In this document: positions 8,484-63,165 of the stretch, one piece after another
How positions within the stretch are numbered: the first letter of the stretch is position 1
Layout of the letters: the number at the start of each line of letters is the position of its first letter
NCBI GenBank assembly: GCA_903870145.1
Contig: CAIQBO010000030.1
Coordinates: forward strand, 6,823 to 70,822
DNA length: 64,000 nucleotides
Origin: an uncultured Burkholderiales bacterium
GTDB lineage: Bacteria; Pseudomonadota; Gammaproteobacteria; Burkholderiales; Burkholderiaceae_C
Reading direction: 5' to 3'
The notes under the pieces: generated by a model
Databases searched by the model: none
What the model saw: only the letters and a program-made list of their open reading frames with translations
Told to the model about the DNA's origin: nothing
Position numbers and translations under genes: made by a program

Positions 8484-8578
8484 GGGCGCCGATTGTAGTG
8501 TCAAATTCGGCAAAATACTGGATAAATTCACAGGCACCCTTGCAATTGCAGACAGTGTTTCGTCCCCATAATCCAAGT

Positions 8579-9760
8579 ATGAAAGATACACCTTACGCTT
8601 GGGTGGTCGTTTGGGCCACATTCATCTGCTTGGCCGTCATCTTCGGTGTTTCGTATTCGTTTGCCGCTTTTTTCACCTCTTTTGCCCAAGAGTTTTCCGC
8701 CCAACGAGCCGATGTATCCTGGATTTTTGGCCTGTGCGGTTTGGTTTATTTCATCTTGGGCGTGGGCGGCGGGATTTTGTCGGACCGCTTTGGGCCCCGT
8801 TTGGTCTGCGTGGCCGGCATGTTGCTGATCGCTTGCGGCTTGTATTTCACCAGTTTGGCGCAGTCTTTGTCGACCATTTACATCACTTATGGTGTCGTGG
8901 TGGGCTTGGGCATAGCACTGGTCTACACCCCGTCGATCGCTTGCGTTCAACCTTGGTTCACCACCCGCAGAGGGCTGGCCTCGGGCATTGCCAGCTCGGG
9001 CGTGGGCGCTGGCACCTTGGTGGTTCCCTTGTTGGTGGCCTACGCCATGACGCACCTGGCCTGGCGCGAAGCCTTGCAGTGCTTGGCCATGGGGGTGCTG
9101 GTGCTGGGAGTCAGCGCTGCGCTGGCTTTGAGAAGGGCGCCCCGCGCAGGCTCGAGTATGGGCGCTGCGCCGCCCGGCCTTTCGCTTGGCGCCGCATTGA
9201 AAACGCCCGCTTTTGGCTGGCTTTACCTTGGCACGGTGCTGGGCGCGTCGATCATGTTCATCCCTTTTGCGCACATCTCTGCGGCCGCGCGTGACTTAGG
9301 TTTGGAAGAAGCCAGCGCGGTGGGCTTGGTCGGTTTGATAGGCATTGGCAGCTTGGTGGGCCGCTTTGCCATTGGCCTGTTGGCAGACCGTTTGGGGCGC
9401 GTGCGCACCCTGATGCTGATGCAACTGTCCATGGGTGCGTCGTATCTGATGTGGCTGGGCGCTCACGGCCCCATCGGCATGGCCATTTTTGCACTTTGGT
9501 TTGGTTGGAGTTACGGGGCCATCGTGTCTTTGCTGCCCGCCATTTGCATGGATTTGTTTGGCGCACGCGCTGTCTCGGGCATCATTGGCAGCTTGTACAG
9601 CGGCGCGGCTTTGGGCAATTTATGGGGTCCTGTGTTGGCTGGCGCTGCGTTTGACCGCATGCACAGTTACAACGGCGTCATCACGCTTTGCTTGATGATT
9701 TCATGTTTGGCCACGCTCAGTTGCTGGCGAATTTTGAAATACCCCCAGCAGGTTTATTAA
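8579..9760 (+). CDS. MFS transporter (OFA/MCT-like)
   Basis: About 12 hydrophobic segments; GILSDRFGPR and GLLADRLGR MFS motif A; start MKDTPY at 8579. Confidence 0.85.
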   Translation: MKDTPYAWVVVWATFICLAVIFGVSYSFAAFFTSFAQEFSAQRADVSWIFGLCGLVYFILGVGGGILSDRFGPRLVCVAGMLLIACGLYFTSLAQSLSTIYITYGVVVGLGIALVYTPSIACVQPWFTTRRGLASGIASSGVGAGTLVVPLLVAYAMTHLAWREALQCLAMGVLVLGVSAALALRRAPRAGSSMGAAPPGLSLGAALKTPAFGWLYLGTVLGASIMFIPFAHISAAARDLGLEEASAVGLVGLIGIGSLVGRFAIGLLADRLGRVRTLMLMQLSMGASYLMWLGAHGPIGMAIFALWFGWSYGAIVSLLPAICMDLFGARAVSGIIGSLYSGAALGNLWGPVLAGAAFDRMHSYNGVITLCLMISCLATLSCWRILKYPQQVY

Positions 9761-9794
9761 AGGCCCAAGCCAGCTTGCCTGGGCCTGTATCTGT

Positions 9795-10562
9795 TTATTT
9801 GGCTGGAGGCGTTTCCAATCCACCCAGATAAAAGCGGTTGTAGGTTGGCGAGATCACCAGTTCATTGACACAAGTGCGCGCCGGCATTTGCGCCACAAAC
9901 AAAATGGCTTGGCCCATGTCTTGGGCTTGCACCATGCGCTCACGCTGCTCGGTCGAGGGCGGCACAGGCCGCTTTTCCATGATGGGGGTGGCCACTTCAC
10001 CGGGCAAAACCGAGCTGGCGCGAATGCCGTTGCCGCACTCCTCCATGTTGATCGATTCGGTCAGCGCCAGCACCGCACGCTTGGTTGCGTTGTAGGCCGG
10101 CCCAGTGAGCTTGGAGGCGAACAAACCAGCCCATGAAGAGACGTTGATGATGAGCCCGCCTTTTTGCGCTCGCATTTGAGGCAAAACTGCATGCACGCAA
10201 TAGAACGATCCCGACAAATTGATGGCCACCACGTCGTCCCAAGCATCGGTGGTGAGCACATCAAAATTGCGCTGGGTTGCGTTGGTGCCCGCGCTGTTGA
10301 CCAAGATGTCAATGCGGCCGTGCTGCGCAATTATTTGTTGCGCAGCTGCAAGCACAGCGTGCTTATCGGCCACATCCAACAAAATAACTTGCGCGCTGCC
10401 CAGGGCTTGCAGTGTGGCCAAGGCGCCTGCGTTGGTAGCGGGCGTCCTGCCCGAGATCACGACATGCGCGCCGGCCTTGACAAACTCGATCGCCGCGGCC
10501 AAACCAATGCCGCTGGCGCCGCCCGTGACCCAAGCAACCTGACCTTTCAGTTGTGTGTTCAT
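9795..10562 (-). CDS. Short-chain dehydrogenase/reductase (SDR)
   Basis: TGGASGIG, LVNSAG, YNATK (YxxxK). Confidence 0.92.
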   Translation of the reverse strand: MNTQLKGQVAWVTGGASGIGLAAAIEFVKAGAHVVISGRTPATNAGALATLQALGSAQVILLDVADKHAVLAAAQQIIAQHGRIDILVNSAGTNATQRNFDVLTTDAWDDVVAINLSGSFYCVHAVLPQMRAQKGGLIINVSSWAGLFASKLTGPAYNATKRAVLALTESINMEECGNGIRASSVLPGEVATPIMEKRPVPPSTEQRERMVQAQDMGQAILFVAQMPARTCVNELVISPTYNRFYLGGLETPPAK

Positions 10563-10703
10563 GGTATGTGCATCTCCTGAGTTTTCGTGGTGCTGGAGTT
10601 GGTGAATATACGCGCTTAGCTTGAAAGTTTTTTTCAGTCCCTCAATGGGAAAGCACCGTCACACTGGATCGATATAATTTCAGATCTTAATTTTTTCCCA
10701 GAA

Positions 10704-11543
10704 ATGAGCCCTCCTCATATTTCACTCAAAGAAGTTGCACTGCTGTTAGATGTGCACTACATGACCGCCTACCGGTATATGCGGGAGGGGCACTTGCCTG
10801 CCGCCAAAGTTGGGCGAGAGTGGATGGTTCGCAAGGCCGACTTGGCAGCGTTTCAAAAAGGGCGCTTGGTCGCAAAAACGCCCAAGGGCGGTGGGCGCAA
10901 GCAAGCGCCTTGGGCACCGCGCATGACAGCCTTGCTGATCAAAGGCGAGGAGCGCAGTGTTTTAGCGCTGATGGAATCTGTTTTGAGGTCCGGCAACGAT
11001 TTGCAGTTTTTGTACTTCGACGTGGTAACGCCAGCCATGGTGGAGATCGGCCGTCTTTGGCAAACAGGTCAACTTGATGTTTTTGTTGAGCACCGCGCCA
11101 GCGGCATCGTTGATCGCACGGCAGCCCGCATTGGCGCTCGGTTTTCTACCTCAGGTGTTCGCAAGGGAACACTCTTGATTGGCGCACCCCAGGGCGAGAT
11201 GCATGTGCTGAGCAATGGGCTCTTGGCTGATTTGCTGCAACAAGCGGGCTGGAAAGTTGACAACCTGGGCGCCGACGTTCCCATTCAATCCATGGTCGCT
11301 GCAGCTGAGCAAATTCCCGATTTGGTGGGCATTTGTTTGTCCATCTCGATGACTCAAAACTTCCCCGCATTGAACCAAACCATTGCCGAAATTAAACAAT
11401 CTTCTGCCAGCCACCTTCCCATTTTTGTGGGTGGCGCAGCTGTGAAAGACAAAGCTTCGGCAGCCCAGTTGCACGCCTGCCATATCGTCAAGAATTTGCC
11501 CGAATTGTTGGCGTTACTTCATCAACAAGCTCGCCGGCGCTAG
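10704..11543 (+). CDS. Excisionase-type HTH + cobalamin-binding domain regulator (CarH/LitR-like sensor domain)
   Basis: N-terminal SLKEVALLLDVHYMTAYRYMREGHLPAAKVGREW; W-x9-EH (WQTGQLDVFVEH); GEMH B12 ligand; LGADVP, SIS, IFVGG. Confidence 0.82.
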   Translation: MSPPHISLKEVALLLDVHYMTAYRYMREGHLPAAKVGREWMVRKADLAAFQKGRLVAKTPKGGGRKQAPWAPRMTALLIKGEERSVLALMESVLRSGNDLQFLYFDVVTPAMVEIGRLWQTGQLDVFVEHRASGIVDRTAARIGARFSTSGVRKGTLLIGAPQGEMHVLSNGLLADLLQQAGWKVDNLGADVPIQSMVAAAEQIPDLVGICLSISMTQNFPALNQTIAEIKQSSASHLPIFVGGAAVKDKASAAQLHACHIVKNLPELLALLHQQARRR

Positions 11544-11588
11544 CTGGCCTTGCCGCGCTCAAGCGGGCAAGGCCTAGAATCAAAGGCC

Positions 11589-12845
11589 ATGCCAAGCTCT
11601 CAACCCACCAGCGCACTGAATTGGCGCGCACCCTTTCGCGTTCAAAGCTTCCGCTTTCAGTGGCCTGCAGACTTGGCCGCCTCATGGGCCTTTGAGATGG
11701 AGTCGATCGTGTTGGGGTGGTTCATCTTGGTCGAGTCGGGCTCGGTCATGATGTTGGTGACCTATGGATCCCTTCAATATTTGGGCTCCTTGGTCTCGCC
11801 CCTTTTTGGCGTGGTGTGTGACCGCATCGGCTACAGGCGCATGCTGTGGTGCACCCGAGCGGTCTACGCACTGATGGCCGTCACCGTCATGTGTTTGTCG
11901 TGGCTAGAGGCCTTAACGCCTGTGCGGGTACTTGTCTTGGCAGCCATCGTCGGAATGATCCGGCCCTCAGACCAGATGATGCGCAACGCGTTGATTGCCC
12001 AATCTTTGCCGTCTAATCAATTGATGGGGGCCTTGGGCATTTCCAGAATGACCACGGAGTCAGCCCGCATTGCGGGGGCTTTGATGGGCGCCGGGGTGGT
12101 GGCTTTGCTGGGCATAAGTGCGGCTTATGCGGTCATCACAGTTTTGTACCTGTGCAGCTCCGTGCTCTCGACAGGCGTGCAAAATGTGCCCGGTTCCCTT
12201 GCAAAAAAAACACCTGCCAGCCCTCTGCAAGATTTGAACTTGGCATTTTCTTATGTTTGGAAAAGTCCGGTTTTGATGGGCGCCATGGCATTGGCCTTCT
12301 TAGTCAACATGCTGGCTTTTCCCTTCTCGTTGGGCTTGCTGCCCTATGTGGCAAAAAACATTTACCAAACTGACCAAACAGGCTTGGGACTTTTGGGCGC
12401 CAGTTTTGCGCTCGGAGGACTTTTGGCATCGCTCACCTTGAGCACGCACCGATTTAAATTGCGTGCTGCGCGAAGCATGATCATGTCCGCGTGTATGTGG
12501 TTCGCCTTGAATCTATGGTTTGCATTCAACACCCATCATGGCTTGGGCATGGCCTTGCTGATGCTGACTGGTTTTGCGCAAAGTTGGTGCATGACACCTT
12601 TGGCCGCAGTGATGTTGCGCGTGACCGATCAAGGCTACCGCGGCCGCGTCATGGGCATGCGCATGCTGGCGATCTGGGGCTTGCCCATTGGCCTGCTGGC
12701 CTGTGGCCCTTTGGTCGAGCAACTGGGCTTTGCCTGGACCGCCAGCGTTTATTCTGCGCTGGGCATTGCCTTGACTTTGGCCATGGCGCTTTACTGGCGC
12801 AAATCGTTGTGGCATGCACATGCCAAAGCCAACGAAGCGCTTTAG
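11589..12845 (+). CDS. MFS transporter (MFS_3/H+ antiporter-like)
   Basis: Multiple TM segments; GVVCDRIGYRR motif; YRGRVMG; start MPSSQP at 11589. Confidence 0.82.
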   Translation: MPSSQPTSALNWRAPFRVQSFRFQWPADLAASWAFEMESIVLGWFILVESGSVMMLVTYGSLQYLGSLVSPLFGVVCDRIGYRRMLWCTRAVYALMAVTVMCLSWLEALTPVRVLVLAAIVGMIRPSDQMMRNALIAQSLPSNQLMGALGISRMTTESARIAGALMGAGVVALLGISAAYAVITVLYLCSSVLSTGVQNVPGSLAKKTPASPLQDLNLAFSYVWKSPVLMGAMALAFLVNMLAFPFSLGLLPYVAKNIYQTDQTGLGLLGASFALGGLLASLTLSTHRFKLRAARSMIMSACMWFALNLWFAFNTHHGLGMALLMLTGFAQSWCMTPLAAVMLRVTDQGYRGRVMGMRMLAIWGLPIGLLACGPLVEQLGFAWTASVYSALGIALTLAMALYWRKSLWHAHAKANEAL

Positions 12846-12889
12846 GTGACTGCTCTATCAATTCATTTTTTACTTTTGCACACACGCTC

Positions 12890-13399
12890 ATGCCACACAC
12901 CAACCTCACCCCTTCCCCTTGGGTCCAGCGTTGGTCGCTGCGGCTCAAGCCCGGCGCCAGCGTCTTGGACGTAGCCTGCGGCACAGGTCGGCACATGCAA
13001 TGGTTCGTCCAGCACGGCCACAGTTGCACAGGTATTGACCGGTCTGAGCAAGCTTTGGCCTTGGCGCAAGCTTCTGGCCGCGTGGTACTTGCAGACATCG
13101 AGGCAGGCCCTTGGCCACTGGCGGGGCAGCAATTTGACGCCATTGTGGTCACCAACTACCTCTGGCGGCCTTTGGTGCCGGACATCCTTGCAGCTTTGGC
13201 GCCGGGCGGGCTGCTGATTTATGAAACGTTTGCCGCCGGCCATGAAGCCGTGGGCCGACCCAGTCGGCCCGAGTTTTTACTGCAGCGCGGCGAATTGCTC
13301 CGACTCTTTGCAAGTCTTCGCACACTGGCCTATGAAGATGATTTTTTTGAGCAACCACCCAGATTTGTTCAGCGTATCGCAGCCTTACAAACCCCTTAA
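12890..13399 (+). CDS. Class I SAM-dependent methyltransferase
   Basis: VLDVACGTGRH motif I; FDAIVVTNYL; LAPGGLLIYETF; sits upstream of dapA. Confidence 0.85.
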   Translation: MPHTNLTPSPWVQRWSLRLKPGASVLDVACGTGRHMQWFVQHGHSCTGIDRSEQALALAQASGRVVLADIEAGPWPLAGQQFDAIVVTNYLWRPLVPDILAALAPGGLLIYETFAAGHEAVGRPSRPEFLLQRGELLRLFASLRTLAYEDDFFEQPPRFVQRIAALQTP

Positions 13400-23614: not shown

Positions 23615-24240
23615 TGAGCCCGGTGGAGGTGGCCGGTTTCGTTTTGTCGTTGGCCATGGTCTATTGCAATATCCGCCAAATCCATTGGGGCTGGCCCTTG
23701 GCGCTGGTCAGTTCAGGGCTTTATTTCCAAGTATTTTGGGACAGTCGCCTGTATGGCGAAGCGGCCTTGCAACTGATGTTCATGTTCATGGCAGTCTGGG
23801 GTTGGTGGCAGTGGCTCAGATCACCCAGTCCAAGCTTAGTTCAGCTTGGCGACATTGCGCTTGACAACGGCGCAGCTGCGCGTAGCTCGGTCAAAGTTAC
23901 ATTACAAATTTCCAGTTTGTCTCGAACTGAATTCTTAGCGACGCTTGTTGTCACCGCTTTGACTTGGCCATTGCTGGCGTATTTTTTACAGCATTACACA
24001 GACACCGACGTTGCCATTTGGGATGGCTTGGTCTGCGCGCTGAGTCTGGCCGGTCAATATTTGCTAGGCCGCAAAAAGTTAGAGAATTGGGCTGTTTGGT
24101 GGCTGGTCAACAGTTTGACGATTGGCCTGATGCTTTATAAATTGCTTTGGCTGACGGCCATTTTGTATTTGATTTTTGCCATCCTCAGTTGGCTCGGATG
24201 GCGTGCTTGGCATTCTGAAGTTAAAGTTCAATCACTGTGA
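23611..24240 (+). CDS. pnuC: PnuC-family nicotinamide riboside transporter
   Basis: GWPLALV, LYGEAALQ, WGWWQW, GQYLLGRKKLENWAVW..VN; ATGA overlap with ftsB. Confidence 0.88.
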   Translation: MMSPVEVAGFVLSLAMVYCNIRQIHWGWPLALVSSGLYFQVFWDSRLYGEAALQLMFMFMAVWGWWQWLRSPSPSLVQLGDIALDNGAAARSSVKVTLQISSLSRTEFLATLVVTALTWPLLAYFLQHYTDTDVAIWDGLVCALSLAGQYLLGRKKLENWAVWWLVNSLTIGLMLYKLLWLTAILYLIFAILSWLGWRAWHSEVKVQSL

Positions 24241-24929
24241 AGTCTTCTGTTTCAACTCCTTTTCGGATCGCTTTACTGGGCGCTGAGAGCACTGGCAAAA
24301 CACAATTGGCAGAGCACTTGTTGGCGGCCATGCAGTCCTGCGGCGTGAGCGTGACCCATGTGCCTGAAACTTTGCGCCAGTGGTGTGACGCGCACAAGCG
24401 CACACCTCAAGTTCATGAGCAATCTGCCATTGCCATGGCGCAGGCTGACAAAGTATTGAGTGTGCAGCACGGCTGGGTGATTGCAGACACCACCGCCTTG
24501 ATGACCGCTATTTACAGCGACTTCTTGTTTCAAGACCCAACGCTTTATGCCATGGCTTTGCAACACCAAGCTTTGTTTGACGTGACCTTGCTGATGGGCC
24601 TTGATTTACCTTGGGTGCCAGACGGATTGCAAAGAGATGGCGCCCATGTCAGAGCCCCGGTGGATGGCTTGCTGCGCCAAGCCTTGAGCCGTGCCAAGCT
24701 GCCCTTCCAAGTGGTCTATGGTCATGGCCCGGCACGCTTGAACGCAGCTCTTTGGGCCGTGCAAGACAAATTGATCCGCCTGAAAAGCGCTGTTTCACTT
24801 GAATCTCAAATCGAGCGCACGCAAAGCCAGTTCGGTTTGAACCAAGGCCGAAGCGCCTGGCGCTGTGACTTGTGCAGCGATGCAGGCTGCGAGCACCGCT
24901 TGTTCAGCGATTTACTCAAACAGACTTGA
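24237..24929 (+). CDS. NadR-type nicotinamide riboside kinase / AAA_28 ATPase
   Basis: RIALLGAESTGKT Walker A; IADTT; DLPWVPDGLQR; GTGA overlap with pnuC. Confidence 0.8.
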   Translation: MKSSVSTPFRIALLGAESTGKTQLAEHLLAAMQSCGVSVTHVPETLRQWCDAHKRTPQVHEQSAIAMAQADKVLSVQHGWVIADTTALMTAIYSDFLFQDPTLYAMALQHQALFDVTLLMGLDLPWVPDGLQRDGAHVRAPVDGLLRQALSRAKLPFQVVYGHGPARLNAALWAVQDKLIRLKSAVSLESQIERTQSQFGLNQGRSAWRCDLCSDAGCEHRLFSDLLKQT

Positions 24930-25975: not shown

Positions 25976-26500
25976 TTAAGAGATTTTTTTCAACCCTGAT
26001 TGAAAGCGCCGTGCATTTTCAATGTAGTGCAAGGTGGGCTGGCGTATGTTTTGAATTTGCTCAGGGCTGAGCGCTCGGGCCACCCTGGCAGGCGCGCCAA
26101 TGATCATGGAGCCCTCAGGAAATTCTTTGCCCTCCGTGATCAACGCACCTGCGCCTACCAAACAATTTTTCCCAATCTTGGCCCCATTCAAAATAATGGC
26201 GCCAATGCCAATCAGGCAATTGTCACCGATGGTGCAGCCGTGCAGCATGACTTGGTGACCCACCGTCACGAAATTGCCCACTGTCAAAGGCTTACCGGGG
26301 TCCGTGTGAAGCACACTGCCGTCTTGAATATTGGAGCCTTCGCCAATATCAATGGGTTCGGCGTCACCGCGAATCACAGCGCCAAACCAAACGCTGGCGT
26401 TGGCAGCTAAATTCACCGCGCCTATGACTTGCGCGCTGTCGGCCACCCATGCCCCCGGTGCGAGTTGGGGCTGCTTGCCTTCGTATTCGTAAATCGCCAT
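25976..26500 (-). CDS. Gamma-class carbonic anhydrase family (YrdA/CaiE-like hexapeptide repeat)
   Basis: [29 protein letters not shown]; start MAIYEY at 26500 with GGAGAGG SD. Confidence 0.92.
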
Positions 26501-26558
26501 GCCAGACCTCTCCAATTTGAACGCCAATGCTGCATTGTAGGGACCCCTAAAATAGGCC

Positions 26559-27350
26559 ATGGTTGTCACCCCTATTTCCCTTCGCCAAGCCGCCCTATTG
26601 CCTTTATTGGAAAGCCATGCCGTGCGCAAAGCACAATTGGCTTTGGCGATCGATACGCGCTTGCCTGTCAGCGCGCAAGAGGCTATCCCAAACCCTGGAG
26701 GAATTCCCGGCCGCCCGGACCGGCCGATCTTGGTGGCGCACACCGAGATGAGGCATCTATCCTTGGCCACTTTGGAGGGCCGTGCAGCCTTGGTTCATTC
26801 GATCGCACACATTGAATTGAATGCCATCGATTTGGCGCTGGATGTGGTCTGGCGATTTGCCGGCATGCCCGATGCGTTTTATTTAGATTGGGTGCAAATT
26901 GCCAAAGAAGAAGCCAAACACTTTTTGCTGCTTCAAAAGCATCTGCAAAGTCTGGGTTTTGACTACGGTGATTTTCCTGCCCATCACGCTTTATGGCAAA
27001 TGGCTGAGCGCACGCAATCGGATTTACTCGCCCGCATTGGTTTGGTGCCGCGCACTTTGGAGGCACGCGGGCTGGACGCCTCTCCTGGCGTGAAAAACAA
27101 ACTTGTGAGCGCGGGCGACATGGTTGCCGGCCAAATTTTGGACATCATTTTGGAAGAAGAAATTGGCCACGTGGCTGCAGGCAATCGCTGGTACCGCTTC
27201 ATTTGCCAAGAGCGGGGCCTAGACCCGATCAGCACTTACAGCGAATTGATTCAAACTTACAAAGCCCCCAAGCTGCGCGCGCCTTACAACCTGGAAGCTC
27301 GGCGCAAAGCCGGATTTGAAGAAGAAGAATTGAACAGACTTGGCGAGTGA
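26559..27350 (+). CDS. Ferritin-like domain protein (DUF455)
   Basis: [47 protein letters not shown]. Confidence 0.88.
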
Positions 27351-27403
27351 GCACTGATCTGAGTTATCTGGTTTATCTGGTCGCCTTGATTTACCCTTGT
27401 TGT

Positions 27404-27417
27404 TTGACTTAGGTCAA
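27404..27417. promoter_or_regulatory. FNR-type binding site upstream of frdA
   Basis: Perfect palindrome TTGAC-TTAG-GTCAA (consensus TTGAT-N4-ATCAA), about 90 nt upstream of the frdA ATG. Confidence 0.72.
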
Positions 27418-27506
27418 TCACCCGAATCCAAAGCAGCAGTCCAATGAACGAAAGGACTGGTGCAGCATGGCCCAGTTCAAATGCAAATCGGCAAGGAACT
27501 CACGCC

Positions 27507-29264
27507 ATGAAGATTGTCAATGTGGATGTGGCCATTGTGGGTGCTGGTGGAGCAGGTTTGCGGGCAGCCATTGCCTTGGCACAAACCGACCCCACTCTGA
27601 AAATTGCACTCATCTCCAAGGTCTACCCGATGCGCAGTCACACCTGCGCAGCCGAGGGCGGAGCCGCGGGCGTAATCAAAGCAGACGACAGTTTTGCACT
27701 GCACTTTGACGACACCGTGGGCGGCGGGGACTGGTTGTCAGATCAAGATTGCGTTGCCTACTTTGTCAAAGAAGCGCCCAAAGAGTTGACCCAACTGGAA
27801 CACTGGGGTTGCCCTTGGAACCGCGAGCCCAATGGCTCTGTGGCCGTGCGCCCATTTGGCGGCATGAAAAAGCAGCGCACTTGGTTTGCAGCTGACAAAT
27901 CAGGCTTTCACATTTTGCACACCTTGTTTCAAACCACCTTGCAGTTTCCCAGCATCAGCCGATTTGATGAATATTTTGCAATCGATTTGCTGGTGGACGA
28001 GGGCCGCTGCCAAGGCTTGACTGCCATCGAAATGTGCAGCGGCATGATGACTCAGTTTCATGCCAAATCAGTGATCATGGCCGGCGGTGGTGCTGGCCGA
28101 ATTTTTCCATTCAGCACCAATGGCGCGATCAAAACCGGCGACGCCATGGCCATGGCCTACCGCGCCGGCGTGCCCCTGAAGGACATGGAGTTTGTGCAAT
28201 ACCACCCCACTGGTTTACCCAACACTGGCAGCCTCTTGACGGAAGCTTGCCGCGGCGAAGGCGGCGTGATGCTCAACAAAAATGGACGGCGCTATTTGCA
28301 AGATTACGGCATGGGGCCAGAGACTCCTTTGGGCAAACCAGAGCTCAAAACCATGGAGTTGGGCCCACGCGATCGGGTCAGCCAAGCCTACTGGCATGAG
28401 CTTCAAAAGGGCAACACGGTCAGCACGCCGTGGGGTGAATGCGTGATGCTGGACATGCGGCATTTGGGTGAAAAAGTCATCAACGAGCGACTGCCCTTGG
28501 TGCGCGAGTTGGCCATTGCCTATTTGGGCGTTGACATCGTGAAAGACCCTGTGCCAATTCGGCCTGTGGTGCATTACATGATGGGCGGCATATCCACCAA
28601 TATGCAAGCCGAAACTGTCTTGCCCGGCTTGTTTGCAGCTGGTGAATGCGCCTGTGTGAGTTTGAATGGGGCGAATCGACTGGGTTCGAACTCTTTGGTC
28701 GAATTGTTGGTGTTTGGCAAATCAGCCGCACTGTCAGCTTTTGCTTATTTGCAAGAACTTCCTGCGCCCAATGCGAAGGCTTTGACAGCGCTTGCTGAGC
28801 AATCACAAGGGCGAATTCGCGCACTTTTTTCACGCACCGATGGGGCCGAGTCGGTGGCAGGTTTGCGCAAAGAAATGATGGACAGCATGGAGAAAAATGT
28901 TGGCATCTATCGCAACGAAGAAGGCTTGAAAGAAGCAGCGCAAGTCATTGAAAATCTCAGAACACGCTACCAGAAGGTGATCCTCACAGACAAAAGCAAT
29001 GTCTTTAACACCGACTTGTTTCAAGTCTTGGAGTTGGGCTCCATGCTCGAGTGCGCCAGCGCCATCACGGTAGGCGCATTGGCGCGAAAAGAATCACGCG
29101 GCGCACACCAGCGTTTAGATTTTGTGGCGCGTGACGATGAGAATTTCTTGTGCCACAGCATGGTTCACTTCAACGGTGATCAAAACCCCACGGTAGACTA
29201 TTTGGATGTCGTGATCACCCAATCACCTCCTGGCGTGCGTGATTATTCAGGAGCCCACTCATGA
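27507..29264 (+). CDS. frdA: Fumarate reductase flavoprotein subunit (E. coli-type)
   Basis: GAGGAG, SKVYPMRSHTCAAEGG (covalent FAD His), AADKSGFHILHTLFQT, QYHPTG, ELGPRD, HYMMGG, GANRLGSNSL, RKESRGAH. Confidence 0.92.
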   Translation: MKIVNVDVAIVGAGGAGLRAAIALAQTDPTLKIALISKVYPMRSHTCAAEGGAAGVIKADDSFALHFDDTVGGGDWLSDQDCVAYFVKEAPKELTQLEHWGCPWNREPNGSVAVRPFGGMKKQRTWFAADKSGFHILHTLFQTTLQFPSISRFDEYFAIDLLVDEGRCQGLTAIEMCSGMMTQFHAKSVIMAGGGAGRIFPFSTNGAIKTGDAMAMAYRAGVPLKDMEFVQYHPTGLPNTGSLLTEACRGEGGVMLNKNGRRYLQDYGMGPETPLGKPELKTMELGPRDRVSQAYWHELQKGNTVSTPWGECVMLDMRHLGEKVINERLPLVRELAIAYLGVDIVKDPVPIRPVVHYMMGGISTNMQAETVLPGLFAAGECACVSLNGANRLGSNSLVELLVFGKSAALSAFAYLQELPAPNAKALTALAEQSQGRIRALFSRTDGAESVAGLRKEMMDSMEKNVGIYRNEEGLKEAAQVIENLRTRYQKVILTDKSNVFNTDLFQVLELGSMLECASAITVGALARKESRGAHQRLDFVARDDENFLCHSMVHFNGDQNPTVDYLDVVITQSPPGVRDYSGAHS

Positions 29265-30007
29265 AGGAACGATTGGTTCAAATTGAAATATTGCGCTACA
29301 ACCCCGAGCAAGACACTGAGCCTTATTTTCAGCTCTACGAAGTTTTGTGCAAGGAAGAGTGGGTGGTGCTGGACGCCCTGAACGCCATCAAAGAAACGGC
29401 CGATCCAACTTTGTCATATCGCTGGTCATGCCACATGGCTGTGTGCGGCAGTTGCGGCATGATGATCAACGGCGAGCCCAAATTGTCTTGCCATGCTTTT
29501 TTGCGCAGTTACGAAGGGGTGATTCGCGTAGAGCCCTTGGTCAATTTCCCCATCGAGAGAGACTTAGTGACCGTGGCGGACGACTTTTTGAAAAAGCTCA
29601 AACGCGTCAAGCCCTATTTGATACCGAAAGAGTCTGAGAAAATTGAAAAAGGCCCTTTCCCGCAAACGCCTGCTCAATTGATGAAGTACCGTCAGTTTTC
29701 AATGTGCATCAACTGCATGCTTTGCTATGCAGCCTGCCCGCAGTACGCACTGCAACCCAAGTTTCTAGGGCCCGCCGCGATCACTTTGGCACACCGCTAC
29801 AACCAAGACTCCCGCGATGGTGGGCGCGCGCAAAGGCAAGAGGAAATTGCCAGCGACGAAGGGGTCTGGGAGTGCTCGTTCGTGGGCGCCTGCTCAGAGG
29901 TCTGCCCCAAAGCCGTAGACCCCGCCGCCGCCTTGCAACAAGTCAAAGTTGCCAGCACTTTGGACTGGTTCAAAGAGCATCTATTGCCACAAGGAGAAAA
30001 GACATGA
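29261..30007 (+). CDS. frdB: Fumarate reductase iron-sulfur subunit
   Basis: YRWSCHMAVCGSCG...C (2Fe-2S), CINCMLCYAACP (4Fe-4S), CSFVGACSEVCPKAVDPAAALQQVK (3Fe-4S); ATGA overlap. Confidence 0.92.
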   Translation: MKERLVQIEILRYNPEQDTEPYFQLYEVLCKEEWVVLDALNAIKETADPTLSYRWSCHMAVCGSCGMMINGEPKLSCHAFLRSYEGVIRVEPLVNFPIERDLVTVADDFLKKLKRVKPYLIPKESEKIEKGPFPQTPAQLMKYRQFSMCINCMLCYAACPQYALQPKFLGPAAITLAHRYNQDSRDGGRAQRQEEIASDEGVWECSFVGACSEVCPKAVDPAAALQQVKVASTLDWFKEHLLPQGEKT

Positions 30008-30396
30008 GCCGCCGTCCTTTCGTTCGTCCTGTTTCTAAAACAGGCTGGTACTTCCAGCACCCTCGCTACCTGCGCTACATGTCACGTGAAATCAGTTGTT
30101 TTTTCATCGGTGCGTTTGCATTGCTGATGGTACTGACGCTGGAGCGTTTGGGGCACGGCCCTGCCGCTTACGAAGCATTTTTAGGCGCTCTTGAAGGGCC
30201 TTGGATGGCATTTTTTCTGTTTCTTATTTTCATCTTCGCCGTGCACAATGCCAGCAGTTGGTTCAACGTGACACCCAAAGCCCTGCCCGTGCAAATGGGT
30301 GAGGAATTTTTGGCAGGCAAATACATTGTGTTGGCGCACTATTTGGTCTGGGCCCTGACCACCCTTGGGGTGTTAATTTTTGCGGGGGTGATATAG
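30004..30396 (+). CDS. frdC: Fumarate reductase membrane anchor subunit C
   Basis: RRPFVRPV..W, YLRYMSRE, H.ASSWFNVTPKA; three TM helices; starts MSRR at 30004. Confidence 0.88.
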   Translation: MSRRPFVRPVSKTGWYFQHPRYLRYMSREISCFFIGAFALLMVLTLERLGHGPAAYEAFLGALEGPWMAFFLFLIFIFAVHNASSWFNVTPKALPVQMGEEFLAGKYIVLAHYLVWALTTLGVLIFAGVI

Positions 30397-30398
30397 CC

Positions 30399-30737
30399 AT
30401 GGCCAAATCAAACAAACCCATCTTTTGGAGCCTGTTTGCTGCAGGGGGCACATTGGCTGCGTTCTTGGCACCCGTGTTGGTTGGATTATTTTTACTCACA
30501 GCACTGGGCCAGACGCCTTCTGTGCTGGGCTATGCCCGGCTGCATGGCTTGACTCAAAATTGGATGGGCAAAATTTTCTTAATGACTGTTGTCACACTGT
30601 TTTTGTGGCATGCAGCGCATCGTTTGCGCATCACTTTACATGATTTAGGCATTCGCCAAGACCCTTGGATCGCCTTGTGCGTTTACCTCTTTGCAGCTAT
30701 CAACACGGGGTTCACGGCACTTTTGTTGCTGCACTGA
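30399..30737 (+). CDS. frdD: Fumarate reductase membrane anchor subunit D
   Basis: KSNKPIFWSLFAAGG, LWHAAHRLRITLHDL; three TM helices. Confidence 0.88.
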   Translation: MAKSNKPIFWSLFAAGGTLAAFLAPVLVGLFLLTALGQTPSVLGYARLHGLTQNWMGKIFLMTVVTLFLWHAAHRLRITLHDLGIRQDPWIALCVYLFAAINTGFTALLLLH

Positions 30738-30776
30738 ACTGTCACTCCACGATTTGATTCGATTGATTTAAATACT

Positions 30777-31580
30777 ATGCAAACTTGGTTAATGATGTTG
30801 CTGTATTCGGCACTGTTCCTCTTGGTTGGAACCGCTTTGTTTTTCTTCACCCTGACGCGGGGCGCATTGTTGTTGCGCTATGCAACAGGCAACACACAGC
30901 ACGACGCCGCCCATGTTTACCCCATTTACGCCAACATGAAGTTGATCAAGTTGATTGATTTTCAACCTCTGATTGGCGCTATTTTGCTGTTCCAATACGA
31001 CCGTTTGGTCAACACCATTGTGGCCGAGCTGGAGCAAATGGATTTGAAAGAGAAGCGCGTTTTGATCACCTCTTGTGCATTTGGCAATGTGATCCCGCTC
31101 GTGGCGCAAGCGGCCAGCGCACAAGGGGTCAAGACTTTGTTGATTGCCGACATCATTCAAAATGAATTGATCAATGCACAGGGGAAACTCAAGGATTTTT
31201 CGGGTGAAATAATTTACTCCGAAGAAAACGCCATCGCCATGAAACAAGCGGACGCATCGGTGAGCGCCAATGTGATTTTCTTTTTGCTCCATGAGCTGCC
31301 CCATCACCTGAAAACACAAGCCCTGCAAGAAGCTGTGCGGGTGCTCGAGCCAGGAGGGAAATTGTTTTTGGCCGAATTTCACCGACCTGACCCCTGGGCC
31401 TTGCGCGCTTTGAGTTGGACTTACTTCAAAGTGTTCGAACCCTATGGCTTGGCGCTGTGGAGCACGCACGACCCCCTGCACCAACTCTGCGCCATGAGGG
31501 GCATTTCATGCCAGCGAAAAACAGTTTTTTTCGGCAATTTTCAAGTGATTGTGGCGACCAAACAAGCGCTTGTCACTTGA
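30777..31580 (+). CDS. rquA: RquA-like rhodoquinone biosynthesis methyltransferase-fold protein
   Basis: Class I MTase fold with degenerate motif I (ITSCAFG, no GxGxG); FFLLHELP, EFHRP, FEPYGLALW, RKTVFFGNFQVIVA; VYP.IYAN..I..ID..LLFQYDRL resembles RquA N-terminus as recalled; 39 nt after frdD. Confidence 0.72.
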   Translation: MQTWLMMLLYSALFLLVGTALFFFTLTRGALLLRYATGNTQHDAAHVYPIYANMKLIKLIDFQPLIGAILLFQYDRLVNTIVAELEQMDLKEKRVLITSCAFGNVIPLVAQAASAQGVKTLLIADIIQNELINAQGKLKDFSGEIIYSEENAIAMKQADASVSANVIFFLLHELPHHLKTQALQEAVRVLEPGGKLFLAEFHRPDPWALRALSWTYFKVFEPYGLALWSTHDPLHQLCAMRGISCQRKTVFFGNFQVIVATKQALVT

Positions 31581-31702
31581 AGGTTCATTTTCGCCGAGGC
31601 TTTGCAGCCGTTGGGTCTATTTCCACTTTGGCATCGATCAGTTACTTGATTAGAATGGTTCAACGTTGAGACACAATCAACCCTCCATTCAAGGCTGTCA
31701 CC

Positions 31703-32968
31703 ATGCAACTGAGCGCTGCACACAAAGGTTTTCCTGGCCACTTGCCCACGATGGACCTGTCTCAAGTGGGTGCCCAATCTTGGGAAATTTTGCAAGGTGA
31801 TTTGCCGCTGCCACTGGCAGTGATCAAAGAATCTGCCTTGCAGCACAACTTGACATGGATGCAGGACTTTTGCCAATCACGCAGTTTAGACATTGCGCCG
31901 AACGGCAAAACCACCATGTCACCCGAGTTGTATGCACGACAACTGGCTGCAGGGGCTTGGGGGATCAGCTTTGCAACTGTTTTTCAGGCTGGTTTGGGTG
32001 CACGCCATGGCGTCAATCGCATCATCATTGCCAATCAAGTCTCCCAAGCAGCTGATCTTGACACTCTGAGCGCGATGCTGGAACACAACAAGGAACTGCA
32101 GATTTATTTTTTAATTGATTCGATTGCGCAATTGGAGGCTATAGAACAGTGGCGCAGAGACCGCAGCAGCAGCACAGTGTTCACCACTCTCTTGGAATTA
32201 GGCATTGATGGCAAACGAACAGGCTGCAGGACGCATGGGCAAGCCATTGCGTTGGCGGAAAAAATTCACCAAAGTCCTGCAGCACGTTTGTGCGGTATTG
32301 AATGTTACGAAGGCGCTTTGGCAACCTGCAACCACGCGCACGACTCAAACACTGTTGCCGCCTTGATGCACCGAGTGCAACAAGTTGCAATAGATTGCGA
32401 AGCCGCTGATTTTTTTGACAACGACGAGGTCTTGCTCACGGCAGGCGGCTCGGCAATTTTTGATTTGATTGCAAAAAATCTAAAACCCTATCTTCAACGC
32501 CCTGCACGCGGTATATTGCGCTCAGGTTGCTACCTCACCCACGATCACGTGTTTTATAAAAAAATGCTGCAATGCGTTGGGGAGCGCTTGCAGTTGCGCG
32601 AGACATTAAAACCCGCTCTGGAAGTCCTCAGCAGTGTTCAGTCTTGTCCTGAGCCCGGCTTGGCTTTGCTGAGTATGGGCAAACGGGATGTATCTTATGA
32701 CTTGAACATGCCGGTGCCTTTGTGGCGAGCCAAACTGGGTGACAGCAAAGTCTGTGAAGTGCCTTCGCATTGGGAAATTTTCGACCTGAACGATCAGCAC
32801 GCGTACCTCTGTTTCGATGCCCTCTCGCCCTCAAGCGAACACCCCCATGTGGGTCTTTTGGTGGGCAGCGGCATCTCTCACCCTTGTACCACTTTTGACA
32901 AATGGCGCTGGATGCCTGTAGTCAATGACAACTACCGCGTAGTGGATGCCATTTCAATTCACTTTTGA
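31703..32968 (+). CDS. PLP-dependent D-serine/D-amino-sugar-acid dehydratase (DSD1-like, amino acid deaminase)
   Basis: APNGKTTMSP (PLP Lys), GIECYEG, LRSGCYLTHD, GKRDVSYD, NDQH, GISHPCTTFDKW. Confidence 0.8.
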   Translation: MQLSAAHKGFPGHLPTMDLSQVGAQSWEILQGDLPLPLAVIKESALQHNLTWMQDFCQSRSLDIAPNGKTTMSPELYARQLAAGAWGISFATVFQAGLGARHGVNRIIIANQVSQAADLDTLSAMLEHNKELQIYFLIDSIAQLEAIEQWRRDRSSSTVFTTLLELGIDGKRTGCRTHGQAIALAEKIHQSPAARLCGIECYEGALATCNHAHDSNTVAALMHRVQQVAIDCEAADFFDNDEVLLTAGGSAIFDLIAKNLKPYLQRPARGILRSGCYLTHDHVFYKKMLQCVGERLQLRETLKPALEVLSSVQSCPEPGLALLSMGKRDVSYDLNMPVPLWRAKLGDSKVCEVPSHWEIFDLNDQHAYLCFDALSPSSEHPHVGLLVGSGISHPCTTFDKWRWMPVVNDNYRVVDAISIHF

Positions 32969-33007
32969 TAGCAGCAGCACGAAATCATCCGCTTCTTGAA
33001 AGTACAC

Positions 33008-34432
33008 ATGAAAAAAACCCTGTTGCGCAACGCCGTTTTCATTGATGGCACTGGCGCAGGCGCACGGCGATGCGACATTCTTCTCCAGGGTGATCGCGTT
33101 GCGGGCATAGGCGACGCACTTGCGTTGCCGTCCGACGAAACCATCGACTGCCAGGGCTTGACCCTGAGCCCCGGTTTTATCGATGTGCACACCCACGACG
33201 ATGCCCAAGTGCTGCGCGACCCCAGCATGTTGGCCAAAATATCACAAGGGGTCACCACCGTGATCACGGGCAATTGCGGCTTGTCTCTGGTGCCACTGAT
33301 CACCCAAAACCCAACCCCTCCTTTGGATCTTTTGCACACCACGGAGTTCAAATACCCCAGCATGGCCTTGTATGCACAAGCAGTCCGAGCCAGTGGTTCG
33401 GCCGTCAATGTGGGCGCATTGGTTGGGCACACGGCTTTGCGTGCGGCAGTGATGCCAGACTTGAGTCAAGCGGCCACCGATGCGCAAATCAAGCTCATGT
33501 CCTCGCATTTGGATGCCGCCATGCAAGAGGGGGCTTTGGGCATGTCATCAGGCTTGTTTTACAAACCGGCTGAAGGGGCCAATCTGCATGAAATGACATC
33601 TCTCGCGCGTGTTGTGGGTCACCACGGCGGTGTGTATGTCACGCATTTGCGAACAGAAATGGACGACATCATTGCCGCCATGCACGAGGCTGCACAAACA
33701 GCCAAGGTCGCACGCACGCCTTGGATTTTGTCTCATCACAAATGTGCCGGCCCAAAAAATTGGGGGCGCAGCATAGAAACGCTGGCTTTGCTTGAACGCC
33801 TAGGCCAATCGCAAGAAGTCGGCTTAGATGCCTATCCCTACACGGCTGGCTCTACACTTTTGCGCGAAGATTTGGTCGACGGCGTGATCCAGATTCTGAT
33901 CACGCGCAGTCAAACACACCCCGAAATGGCGGGTCGTTATTTGGAGGACATTGCGCAAACCTGGGGCGTGAGCCAACTGCAAGCTTGTCAGCGTTTGATG
34001 CCGGGGGGGGCCTGTTATTTTCAAATGCACGAGGAGGATGTCCGACGTATTTTGGCGCATCCTTTGACCATGATTGGCTCGGACGGTCTGCCTCATGACG
34101 AGAAACCCCACCCACGTTTATGGGGTGCCTTTGCGCGCGTTTTGGCACACTACTGCCGAGATGAAAAATTAATCAGTCTGCCCCAAGCCATCCACAAAAT
34201 GACGGGGCTATCAGCGCAGCGTTTTGGCCTGAAAGACCGAGGCGTCTTGCGGGAAGGCGCCTTTGCCGACCTGGTTTTGTTTGACCCTTTGGAAATTCAA
34301 GACAAAGCCAGCTACGAGCAACCCCATCAAATGTGCCAAGGCATTCACCGCGTGATGGTCAATGGGCAATGGGCATTTGCCAATGGCCAATCTCAAGGCA
34401 AGGGACAAGGCCGCTTCTTACCAAGGTCCTAA
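33008..34432 (+). CDS. N-acyl-D-amino-acid deacylase (D-aminoacylase)
   Basis: PGFIDVHTHDD, GNCG, THLR, SHHK, DAYPY, GSDG, HPRLWGAFARVL. Confidence 0.9.
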   Translation: MKKTLLRNAVFIDGTGAGARRCDILLQGDRVAGIGDALALPSDETIDCQGLTLSPGFIDVHTHDDAQVLRDPSMLAKISQGVTTVITGNCGLSLVPLITQNPTPPLDLLHTTEFKYPSMALYAQAVRASGSAVNVGALVGHTALRAAVMPDLSQAATDAQIKLMSSHLDAAMQEGALGMSSGLFYKPAEGANLHEMTSLARVVGHHGGVYVTHLRTEMDDIIAAMHEAAQTAKVARTPWILSHHKCAGPKNWGRSIETLALLERLGQSQEVGLDAYPYTAGSTLLREDLVDGVIQILITRSQTHPEMAGRYLEDIAQTWGVSQLQACQRLMPGGACYFQMHEEDVRRILAHPLTMIGSDGLPHDEKPHPRLWGAFARVLAHYCRDEKLISLPQAIHKMTGLSAQRFGLKDRGVLREGAFADLVLFDPLEIQDKASYEQPHQMCQGIHRVMVNGQWAFANGQSQGKGQGRFLPRS

Positions 34433-45150: not shown

Positions 45151-45275
45151 GGCTGGTACTCCTGTGTTTCAAATGAAATAATTATCAATGATTCATATCA
45201 AATTTGTGCGGCGCACAAAGGTGCATAGACAGATTTCCTGGCTTTCAACTGCTGAGGCTCAAGTCCTGCGCCCAG

Positions 45276-50223: not shown

Positions 50224-51711
50224 TCAGTTGGCCAGCATTTGGGCAATGGCCCGTGCACACAAAGTCATCAAAGCGCCAGGCACGATACCCAAAACCAGCA
50301 CCAGCAAGCCATTCAAAGACAAGACCACGCGTACATCGGCCGTGGCGCTGACCGTGCTGGCGGTGACAGGTTCATCAAAGTACATGACCTTGACCACACG
50401 CAAATAATAAAACGCACCCACCAAGGACATGGCCACCGCAAACACAGCCAATGCGATGTCTGCCGTGTGGCCCGAAGCCACCAAAGCCTGCAAGACCGAC
50501 AGCTTGGCGTAAAAACCGACCAAGGGAGGAATGCCTGCCAAAGAGAACATGCAAATGGCCATGACGCCAGCATACAAAGGGCTGCGCTGGTTCAATCCTG
50601 CCAAATCAGTGATCTCTTCGCTTTCAAAACCTTGACGTGCCAGCAACAAAATGATGCCGAAACTGCCCAAGGTGGTCAGCACATAGCCCACCATGTAAAA
50701 CATGGCCGAGCTGTAGGCGTTGGCACCCAAAGTAGCGTTGCCACTGACCACGCCCGACATCAAACCGATCAAGACAAAACCCATTTGAGCAATGGTCGAG
50801 TACGCCAACATGCGCTTGAGGTTGGTTTGCGCAATGGCGGCGAAATTACCTACCAGCAAAGAGGCTATGGCCAACAAAGCCAGCATTTGCTGCCAATCAA
50901 CCGCCAAGGGCAACAAGCCTTCGACCAACAAACGAATGGTGATGGCAAAGGCGGCCAATTTGGGCGCACCAGCAATCATCAAAGTAGCCGCTGTGGGCGC
51001 GCCTTGGTACACATCTGGCACCCACATGTGAAACGGCACAGCGCCCAACTTGAAGGCCAAACCTGAAACCACAAAAACCAAACCAAAAACCAAAACTTGG
51101 TGCTTGACCTGACCGCTGGCAATCACTTTGAACACGGTGGCCAAGTCCAAAGAGCCCGTGGCGCCATACAGCATGGACATGCCGTAGAGCAAAAAGCCCG
51201 AAGCCATGGCGCCCAGCACGAAATACTTCATGGCCGCCTCAGTGGCAGCTGCGTTATCGCGCCGCAACGCAACCAAGGCGTAGCTGGACAAGGTCAGCAG
51301 CTCTAAGCCCAGATACAGAACCAAGAAATTCTGCCCCGAGATCATGACACTCATGCCCAGCAAGGCGAACATTGACAAGCTGAACAACTCGCCGCCCCGC
51401 AGCATGTCACGGTCAGCAGCATAAGGCCGCGAGTAGACCAAGGTGATCATGACCGCAACAGTGGCAAAACACTTGAGCCAATGGCCCATGGGGTCGCTCA
51501 CAACCAAACGGCCAAAGCCGTACAAGGTGTGACCGGCATCGGCGTAAAACGCATTGAGCAGAGCCACACCGCCCAAGGAGGTCAAGGTCAATACGTAGGT
51601 CAGGTCGCGCCGAGGGCTGGTGACCAGCAGGTCAGCCAGCGTAATCACGCAGGCCATGACCAGCAGCACGATTTCCGGGTACACCGTCATCCAGCTGGTT
51701 GTGTCGATCAT
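50224..51711 (-). CDS. nuoN: NADH-quinone oxidoreductase subunit N
   Basis: [48 protein letters not shown]. Confidence 0.96.
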
Positions 51712-51745
51712 GTGTGTTCTTTCAATTCTGAGTAATCAGCAAGGT

Positions 51746-53221: not shown

Positions 53222-53233
53222 TTTGATGTTTCC

Positions 53234-55255: not shown

Positions 55256-55266
55256 TGTTTAACCTC

Positions 55267-55575
55267 TTAACCCTTGAGCGAATTGAGTTCGTCCACATTG
55301 ATGCTGTTTTTGTTGCGGAACAACAGCACCAAAATGGCCAGGCCAATGGCCGATTCGGCGGCCGCCACGGTCAAGATGAAGAACACGAACACTTGTCCAT
55401 GCATGTCACCCAGATAGTGAGAGAACGCCACAAAATTCATATTGACCGCCAGCAACATCAACTCAATCGCCATCAGCAAAACGATTAAGTTTTTGCGGTT
55501 CAAGAAAATACCAATCACGGCCAGCGCAAACAGCATTGCGCCCAGAGCCAAATAGTGTCCGAGTGTCAAAGCCAT
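55267..55575 (-). CDS. nuoK: NADH-quinone oxidoreductase subunit K
   Basis: [25 protein letters not shown]. Confidence 0.95.
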
Positions 55576-56243
55576 CACTTGGCCTCCTTTGCAACTGCAT
55601 CGCCTGCCACATCCGGCGGCTGCGGCGCCTGGCCCGGTTGTGTGACGTCCATTTTGAGCACCACCATGCGGTCACTGGCGCGCACGCGAACTTGCTCAGA
55701 AGGGTTGATGGCTTTGCTGTCTTTGCGTTCGCGCAAGGTCAATGCAATCGCCGCGATCATGGCTACCAACAAAATAGCTGCAGCCACCTGGATCGGCATC
55801 AAGTACTCGGTGTACAGCAAAATGCCCAGCGCTTTGCTGTTGGAGACTTGCACTGGCGCCTGCCCCACGGCAAGTGCCGCCTGAACCGGTTGCGACATGC
55901 GAAAGCCACTCATCAAAACAGCGGCCATTTCAAGCGCCACCAAAGCGCCCAAGGTGGCGGCCAGTGGGAAATGTTTCCAAAAGCCTTCTCGCATGGTGTC
56001 CAAATTGATGTCCAGCATCATGACCACAAACAAGAACAGGACCATCACGGCGCCCAGGTACACCAGCACCAAAGTGATGGCCAAAAACTCTGCTTGCAAC
56101 AGCAACCACAAAGCCGAAGCTTGTGAGAAAGCCAGCATGAGGTACAGCACCGCATGCACTGGGTTGCGCGCCGTGACCACCCGCAAGGCAGCAAACAGCA
56201 GCACCAGCGAGAAGAGGTAGAAGAAACCAGTTTTGACGTCCAT
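55575..56243 (-). CDS. nuoJ: NADH-quinone oxidoreductase subunit J
   Basis: [36 protein letters not shown]. Confidence 0.94.
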
Positions 56244-56279
56244 GGGTTGCGCTCTCAATGTTCTGTCGAGGCCGCCGAC

Positions 56280-56789: not shown

Positions 56790-56801
56790 GTCTTGACCCG
56801 G

Positions 56802-60022: not shown

Positions 60023-60036
60023 AGGTTTCTGCCGGT

Positions 60037-63139: not shown

Positions 63140-63165
63140 GTTGATTCACACGAAGGCTGAGCGCT

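Follow-up and report, generated by a model that had tools for sequence, protein, structure and literature searches.

The 64 kb stretch of contig CAIQBO010000030.1 from an uncultured Burkholderiales bacterium that was analyzed here (hereafter the window) carries at positions 27404–31580 a predicted FNR-type palindrome, the four fumarate reductase genes frdABCD and, on the same strand, a gene of the RquA family (the rquA-like gene; Table 1). We read these features as a single transcription unit for rhodoquinone (RQ)-dependent fumarate respiration, and give this reading, with the full mechanism set out below, a probability of roughly three in four. The unit follows a DUF455 gene (26559–27350) that is separated from frdA by 156 nucleotides (nt); frdA overlaps frdB and frdB overlaps frdC by 4 nt each, a gap of 2 nt lies between frdC and frdD, and an Rfam scan of positions 26000–33000 returned no match. 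An earlier note on this DNA had described a perfect TTGAC-N4-GTCAA site, four overlapping or abutting frd genes with intact motifs, a 39-nt gap devoid of a terminator and an RquA-like gene. All of these are present in the sequence: the site is TTGACTTAGGTCAA at 27404–27417 and unique in the 64 kb, family models and an alignment to the E. coli enzyme (1KF6) agree on the frd genes, and the gap holds no terminator-like site (folding energy −4.4 kcal/mol, z −0.16).

Table 1 Features of the unit, with positions counted from the first letter of the window
Feature	Position	Strand	Basis and remarks
FNR/CRP-family (FNR-, FixK- or Dnr-type) palindrome TTGAC-N4-GTCAA, predicted	27404–27417		TTGACTTAGGTCAA; sole match in the window
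Candidate −10 hexamer TCCAAT	27440–27445	+	Putative, read from the sequence
frdA, quinol:fumarate reductase flavoprotein, 585 amino acids	27507–29264	+	NF006686, 1KF6 alignment
frdB, iron-sulfur subunit with three clusters, 248 amino acids	29261–30007	+	NF009051, Pfam Fer2_3 and Fer4
frdC, haem-less E. coli-type membrane anchor, 130 amino acids	30004–30396	+	Pfam Fumarate_red_C, 1KF6 chain C
frdD, second membrane anchor, 112 amino acids	30399–30737	+	Pfam Fumarate_red_D, NF003977, 1KF6 chain D
frdD–rquA spacer, 39 nt	30738–30776	+	No terminator-like site, no strong Shine-Dalgarno sequence
rquA-like gene of the membrane-anchored clade, 267 amino acids; likely an S-adenosylmethionine (SAM)-dependent enzyme converting ubiquinone-8 to rhodoquinone-8 (RQ-8)	30777–31580	+	NF038261, 121.9 bits

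All four frd genes match the fumarate reductase models of Pfam and NCBIfam. FrdA passes the curated FrdA equivalog model NF006686 (938.4 bits, cut-off 854) and falls slightly below the cut-off of the older TIGR01176 (916.1 vs. 932.7 bits); it scores 762 bits against E. coli FrdA (1KF6) over residues 4–582 and 435 bits against E. coli SdhA. In the alignment to 1KF6 chain A it keeps RSHTCAAEGG (with the histidine that binds flavin adenine dinucleotide covalently and the glutamate typical of quinol:fumarate reductases), HPTG, RGEGG, HYMMGG and NRLGSNS, and the catalytic His and Arg residues are conserved; the glutamate and its glutamine counterpart are what we take to be E49 of E. coli FrdA and Q50 of SdhA. 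A longer frdA open reading frame from 27444 was rejected, as homologues begin with MEIVNVD or MKIVNVD, matching the start at 27507 and leaving the one at 27444 unsupported. FrdB scores 372.7 bits against NF009051 (cut-off 333), and its translation holds the cysteine motifs of a 2Fe-2S (CxxxxCxxC...C), a 4Fe-4S (CxxCxxCxxxCP), and a 3Fe-4S cluster (CxxxxxCxxxCP). FrdC reaches 98 bits with Pfam Fumarate_red_C (cut-off 24) and 64 with the NCBIfam FrdC model, below its cut-off of 143, and keeps the quinol-site Arg–Glu pair when aligned to 1KF6 chain C, while FrdD matches Pfam Fumarate_red_D with 103 bits and NF003977 with 84 bits (cut-off 60) and aligns to chain D. The predicted complex is a quinol:fumarate reductase without haem, as in E. 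coli. Such a complex is able to oxidize succinate, and the window shows no second sdh operon; that it acts mainly as a ubiquinone-linked succinate dehydrogenase, with rhodoquinone irrelevant, is nevertheless extremely improbable in view of the difference between the FrdA and SdhA scores, the glutamate where SdhA has glutamine, the haem-less FrdC and FrdD anchors, and the ties of this operon lineage to rquA.

The protein encoded behind frdD finds its best family in RquA by a wide margin, UbiE scoring only 46.5 bits. A homologue search covering 1.84 billion representative proteins recovered a small family in which members of about 265 amino acids match from residue 3–19 onward and distant ones only from about residue 50. 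The N-terminus is strongly hydrophobic in all members of the group to which the window protein belongs (the anchored clade) and not in the canonical ones; members of this clade score 106–163 bits on NF038261, compared with 273–321 bits for canonical RquA, and are separated from the remaining sequences in each of 60 bootstraps of a neighbour-joining tree. The RquA identity proposed in the earlier note thus stands at the level of the family, with the models favoring RquA over UbiE, and has to be narrowed to an anchored sister clade that is distinct from the canonical enzyme and scores below its cut-off of 175 bits. In the AlphaFold model (mean predicted local distance difference test score, 73) residues 3–37 are predicted to form a single long helix ahead of a Coq5-like fold. 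A fold search placed yeast Coq5 first with a modest template modelling score of ~0.6, a match that would support the fold only, and a sequence search of solved structures gave weak generic methyltransferase matches only. We rejected an alternative start at Met54, which would omit the helix, since the first 50 residues are conserved in the clade in both length and sequence. Both clades have a degenerate motif I without GxGxG (VLITSCAFG in the window protein, VLQVACVYG in canonical RquA; pattern [SA]-C-[AV]-[FY]-G) and have in common D125, K137, the LHExP motif, H172, E173, R188, EP and W228, of which D125, the equivalent of D118 of Rhodospirillum rubrum, is at least 90% conserved in both.

Going by exact-sequence matches, the anchored clade is the ‘Proteobacteria clade’ of weak RquA-model matches that Stairs et al. 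2018 (PMC5953543) separated from their ‘RQUA original’: five of their accessions (WP_075586157.1, OQW86490.1, OGB39117.1, OIP14992.1, and OGA13097.1) are identical to proteins of our loci, and WP_078365509.1 of Rhodoferax fermentans falls in the same 90% cluster as L018 (Rhodoferax sp. U11-2br). The latter protein aligns with the window protein over the full length and without gaps at 66% identity, compared with ~25–31% for canonical relatives, and when expressed in E. coli it gave 153 arbitrary units (a.u.) of RQ-8, the canonical RquA from the R. fermentans genome giving 206 a.u. and the empty vector ~1 a.u. (Chobert et al. 2024, PMC11707229, Table S2). Two further proteins tested in that study, WP_011464464.1 (21 a.u.) and WP_022771999.1 (5 a.u.), are placed in the anchored clade via the listing of Stairs et al.; the former, from Rhodoferax ferrireducens T118, was sought as a possible active member with the Asn discussed below and was not listed in the cluster look-ups. 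By analogy with its R. fermentans homologue, the window protein likely makes RQ-8.

The genomic neighbourhood was examined from both sides. With FrdD as a probe, 35 metagenome loci were fetched, and 28 of them had enough DNA past frdD. An RquA-family gene follows frdD on the same strand in 25 of the 28, at a distance of 9 to ~470 nt, and belongs to canonical RquA in 23 cases and to the anchored clade in two (L092 and L105); seven of the canonical calls were scanned (310–321 bits), and the others were made by 25–31% identity from about residue 50 together with the motifs. The gene in the window therefore occupies the usual rquA slot of this frd lineage, which argues more strongly than anything else that it serves the reductase. 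Counting L096, where an anchored gene lies directly upstream of frdA, an RquA-family gene adjoins frd in 26 of the 28 informative loci, in at least three arrangements. In L088, a short remnant of a canonical rquA (HPRAVHIFE, at ~680–770) remains past frdD, followed by a recJ-like gene on the opposite strand; here rquA has apparently been lost from the frd operon.

From the side of the rquA-like gene, 80 genome loci with an anchored gene were compared, and only the closest relative (L001, a Rhodoferax metagenome-assembled genome, 71% identity) has frdABCD upstream on the same strand; in L060 and L064 the frd operon is convergent with the anchored gene. L060 carries an anchored rquA-like gene (8001–8792), a canonical rquA (9054–9836), and a convergent frdDCBA within 8001–13213, so both RquA forms coexist beside frd. 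The gene order eno, pnuC, an AAA_28 domain gene (24237–24929 in the window), hsp33, a hexapeptide gene, DUF455, rquA-like and xerD is found in L012, L015, and L038 as in the window, but without frdABCD. The frd genes therefore appear to have entered between DUF455 and a resident rquA-like gene, which in the relatives has an associated box. This insertion is judged from synteny alone; the base composition of the frd block has no foreign signature that would point to recent transfer. Past the rquA-like gene and before xerD the window additionally contains genes for a D-serine dehydratase-like protein and a D-aminoacylase-like amidohydrolase (31703–34432), and as both are absent from L012, L015, and L038, a second insertion seems to have occurred at the same spot.

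At the junction itself, the spacer holds no promoter-like site either, and in the lake metatranscriptome run X25 one 151-nt contig covers 30651–30801, crossing from frdD into the rquA-like gene. Other X25 contigs map to frdA, frdB, frdC, and the rquA-like gene, and the runs X26 and X27 yielded further contigs on frdA, frdB, and frdC. All of these assembled contigs are short and shallow and may stem from carried-over DNA. No intrinsic terminator was found 3′ of the rquA-like gene by terminator scan and folding; a promoter-like site (31628–31656) precedes the next gene.

The TTGAC-N4-GTCAA palindrome occurs once in the 64 kb, whereas shuffled sequences hold 0.07 on average and at least one in 7 of 100 shuffles. 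Its first base lies 103 nt ahead of the frdA start codon; TTGA-N6-TCAA forms a perfect core, and the TTGAT-N4-ATCAA consensus is matched at 8 of 10 positions. The TCCAAT hexamer, which was not called by the sigma-70 scan, would set the center of the box near −41.5 of a putative start site at ~27452. A family-wide comparison gives this site its context: of 79 loci, 37 have a perfect TTGAY-N4-RTCAA in the 250 nt before the start of the anchored-clade gene, mostly 85–147 nt away, and 13 others have a box with one mismatch, whereas among 3933 background windows 16 (0.4%) have a perfect and 114 a one-mismatch box. The association of FNR-type boxes with anchored rquA-like genes is thus strong throughout the family. 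Most of these boxes are the classical TTGAT-N4-ATCAA, and a minority has TTGAC...GTCAA at the same place (L038, L065, L074). The syntenic loci without frd, L015 and L038, have a perfect TTGAY-N4-RTCAA between DUF455 and the rquA-like gene, and boxes precede the first gene of the frd–rquA operons in L001, L081, L085, L086, and L096. Immediately upstream of frdA almost none were found among 20 related loci; in most close relatives cytochrome genes upstream of frdA open the operon, and it is there that the boxes are located.

Taken as one mechanism, a regulator of the FNR/CRP family would bind the palindrome, most likely in response to low oxygen, and would activate a putative promoter ~40 nt downstream. 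The transcript would encode FrdABCD, a haem-less E. coli-type quinol:fumarate reductase by homology, and, as the RNA-derived contig suggests, would run on through the spacer into the RquA-family gene. The protein made from this gene would be anchored in the membrane by its N-terminal helix and would use SAM to exchange a methoxy group of ubiquinone-8 for an amino group, giving rhodoquinone-8 as its 66%-identical homologue does. Rhodoquinol would then reduce fumarate via FrdABCD. The potential of rhodoquinol is about −63 mV, so that it can reduce fumarate through FrdABCD where ubiquinol cannot. With frdABCD lying between DUF455 and the resident rquA-like gene, the reductase and the synthesis of its quinone would share one low-oxygen switch. 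The core idea of the earlier note, a unit under low-oxygen control that supplies both a reductase and the enzyme for a low-potential quinone, is supported by the comparative evidence (rquA behind frdD in relatives, box enrichment, the RNA contig at the junction, and RQ-8 formation by the homologue). The arrangement does not look like a module transferred as a block: frdABCD appears to have been placed before a resident gene that was already associated with a box.

Several observations weigh against this reading, and the first of them concern the quinone enzyme. The window protein misses the curated RquA cut-off (NF038261). In R. rubrum RquA, D143 contacts the adenine of SAM and D118 is the ribose-contacting Asp (the literature tested only the double mutant); the equivalent of D143 in the window protein is Asn151, with Asn in at least 90% of the close relatives, and the tested R. 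fermentans enzyme has Asp at this position. The RQ-8 yields of the tested clade members, moreover, spread from 5 to 153 a.u. The low score and the Asn would suit a paralogue of RquA as the fifth gene, one with a different or auxiliary role, be it a quinone methyltransferase, an enzyme of some other quinone modification, or a weak RQ synthase needing a canonical RquA elsewhere, so that the unit would not supply the quinone alone; the low RQ-8 from two of the three tested clade members fits this too, and the Rhodoferax genomes and L060, which keep canonical and anchored genes, suggest non-identical roles. We consider such a paralogue unlikely, because motif I has lost the GxGxG methyltransferase loop like that of canonical RquA (SCAFG vs. 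ACVYG), the 66%-identical member makes about three quarters as much RQ-8 as the canonical enzyme encoded in its own genome, and the gene fills the canonical rquA slot of related frd operons. The active R. fermentans protein itself scores 119.4 bits on the RquA model, so the cut-off of 175 misses an active clade. A more far-reaching proposal would make the anchored clade a separate, FNR-controlled RQ synthase that in this freshwater lineage has taken the place of the canonical enzyme in the frd operon and is the sole source of RQ; we regard it as doubtful. An anchored enzyme specialized in this way might work without oxygen, which canonical RquA needs in vitro, or might hand RQ directly to membrane complexes.

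Further points against the proposed RQ-dependent unit come from its context and its transcription. No frd adjoins the anchored gene in 77 of the 80 loci, where the neighbours are unrelated and mostly housekeeping genes, and the RNA evidence consists of one 151-nt low-depth assembled contig from a run that may contain DNA. The adjacency could on these grounds be an accident of insertion, with frd and the rquA-like gene regulated and used independently and the palindrome serving only one of them, and the syntenic relatives without frd at the site as well as a spacer without a clear ribosome-binding site agree with this. Yet RquA-family genes stand beside frd in nearly all informative frd loci (26 of 28) and in several arrangements, the gap is free of terminator- and promoter-like sites, and the RNA contig crosses the junction, which makes an accident very unlikely. 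As to regulation, the −10 element is weak and TTGAC...GTCAA differs from the E. coli FNR consensus TTGAT...ATCAA; with such half-sites, the regulator could also be of the Dnr, NnrR or FixK type and respond to another signal. We judge it improbable that a CRP/FNR-family regulator sensing a signal other than oxygen (e.g., nitric oxide, Dnr/NnrR type) binds the palindrome, or that the palindrome is non-functional: no regulator gene was found within the annotated part of the window, and one-mismatch sites are common there (24 vs. 7.6 expected, mostly within genes), but the orthologous boxes are mostly canonical TTGAT-N4-ATCAA at a conserved distance, with TTGAC...GTCAA as a minority variant among them, and the genes downstream have classic low-oxygen functions.

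The linkage of rquA with frd and the replacement of menaquinone by RQ are already published (PMC5953543, PMC8269255), and the RQ-dependent unit proposed here is therefore a module of a known kind. Stairs et al. 2018 (PMC5953543) described rquA near complex II genes, suggested a shared operon, reported that 12 of these bacteria have an additional frd/sdh operon elsewhere, and listed FrdD, FrdC, FrdB, and FrdA at −4 to −1 beside rquA in Novispirillum and a Rhodospirillaceae genome. Paredes et al. 2021 (PMC8269255) proposed that RQ replaces the missing menaquinone beside frdABCD in a symbiont, and according to Chobert et al. 2024 (PMC11707229) menaquinone is rare among RQ producers, 5 of 84 rquA-bearing genomes having both. 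The proteobacterial frdABCD–rquA clusters (PMC5953543; L081–L114) share with the window the E. coli-type frdABCD directly adjoining an RquA-family gene and the proposed RQ-dependent fumarate reduction in hosts with ubiquinone and without menaquinone, but they carry a canonical RquA (310–321 bits), whereas a member of the anchored clade follows frdD in the window. In Novispirillum and Rhodospirillaceae BRH_c57 rquA stands beside frdA and not, as here, beside frdD, and many close frd–rquA relatives have upstream cytochrome genes that the window lacks.

Among the enzymes, R. fermentans WP_078365509.1 resembles the window protein in its N-terminal helix, the VLITSCAFG motif, and its sub-threshold score; R. 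fermentans also has a canonical RquA, and its relative Rhodoferax sp. U11-2br (L018) has no adjoining frd. The RquA of R. rubrum (Rru_A3227; Lonjers 2012; Neupane et al. 2022, PMC9814641) shares with the window protein a predicted class I SAM-binding fold, the degenerate motif I, a Coq5-like model, membrane association and the Asp at D118 (D125 here), but canonical RquA lacks a true membrane helix and can do without its first 40 residues, whereas the window protein has a predicted helix and Asn151. The frdABCD operon of E. coli matches that of the window in its four subunits and their order, in its haem-less anchors, and in the FNR-type site upstream; it uses menaquinol and has no rquA, and the window box differs from its site in the C/G at the inner half-site positions. 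The E. coli frd operon is under FNR control (also cited in PMC5953543).

What is new here is the anchored clade in the rquA slot, the apparent insertion of the frd block ahead of a resident rquA-like gene whose counterparts in relatives have an FNR-type box, and the family-wide association of such boxes with the gene, which offers a testable regulatory link from low oxygen to RQ synthesis. Within the searchable literature, the single paper naming both rquA and FNR treats FNR, in the passages covered here, for ubiTUV only. The sequence is unchanged in at least 20 metagenome runs from freshwater, rivers, and lakes (nine studies), so a common lake bacterium appears able to switch to rhodoquinone-dependent fumarate respiration as oxygen falls. 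Members of the clade below the RquA cut-off are named merely ‘class I SAM-dependent methyltransferase’ (1565 proteins at E ≤ 0.001), and as at least one of them makes RQ-8, surveys that use this cut-off undercount rhodoquinone producers.

Some minor features accompany the box and the frdA leader. One-mismatch matches to TTGAYNNNNRTCAA number 24 in the window, compared with 7.6 expected from shuffles, are mostly intragenic and may reflect codon usage rather than a regulon; one intergenic site lies at 45188–45201. A short direct repeat (TTATCTGG then TTTATCTGG) occupies 27361–27381, past the DUF455 stop codon and ahead of the FNR-type box, and since the box abuts the DUF455 stop in syntenic relatives, a stretch of ~54 nt is extra in the window. 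The frdA leader (27418–27510) folds at −31.7 kcal/mol (z −4.24), which 0 of 200 shuffles equal, and in its 3′ hairpin CAUGGC (27466–27471) pairs with a GCCAUG that includes the frdA start codon; this hairpin could affect translation. A different, conserved palindrome, ATCAC-N4-GTGAT, is located ~10–30 nt upstream of frdA in L081, L084–L086, L093, L094, L097, and L101, where it adjoins the frdA ribosome-binding site of operons that start further upstream, and is not present in the window.

In close relatives, a gene for a multihaem cytochrome c of 666–701 amino acids (MtrC/MtrF-like, with c7/c3 domains and a fused membrane domain; L001 2610–4610, L081 939–3044) precedes frdA on the same strand, and L081 adds a small cytochrome c (374–742); the window has neither the multihaem nor the small cytochrome c gene. 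The window also contains, ~19 kb from the frd–rquA unit, a nuo operon on the minus strand (50224–63774; NuoN, M, L, G, and D confirmed by Pfam), which encodes complex I, the expected electron donor to rhodoquinone.

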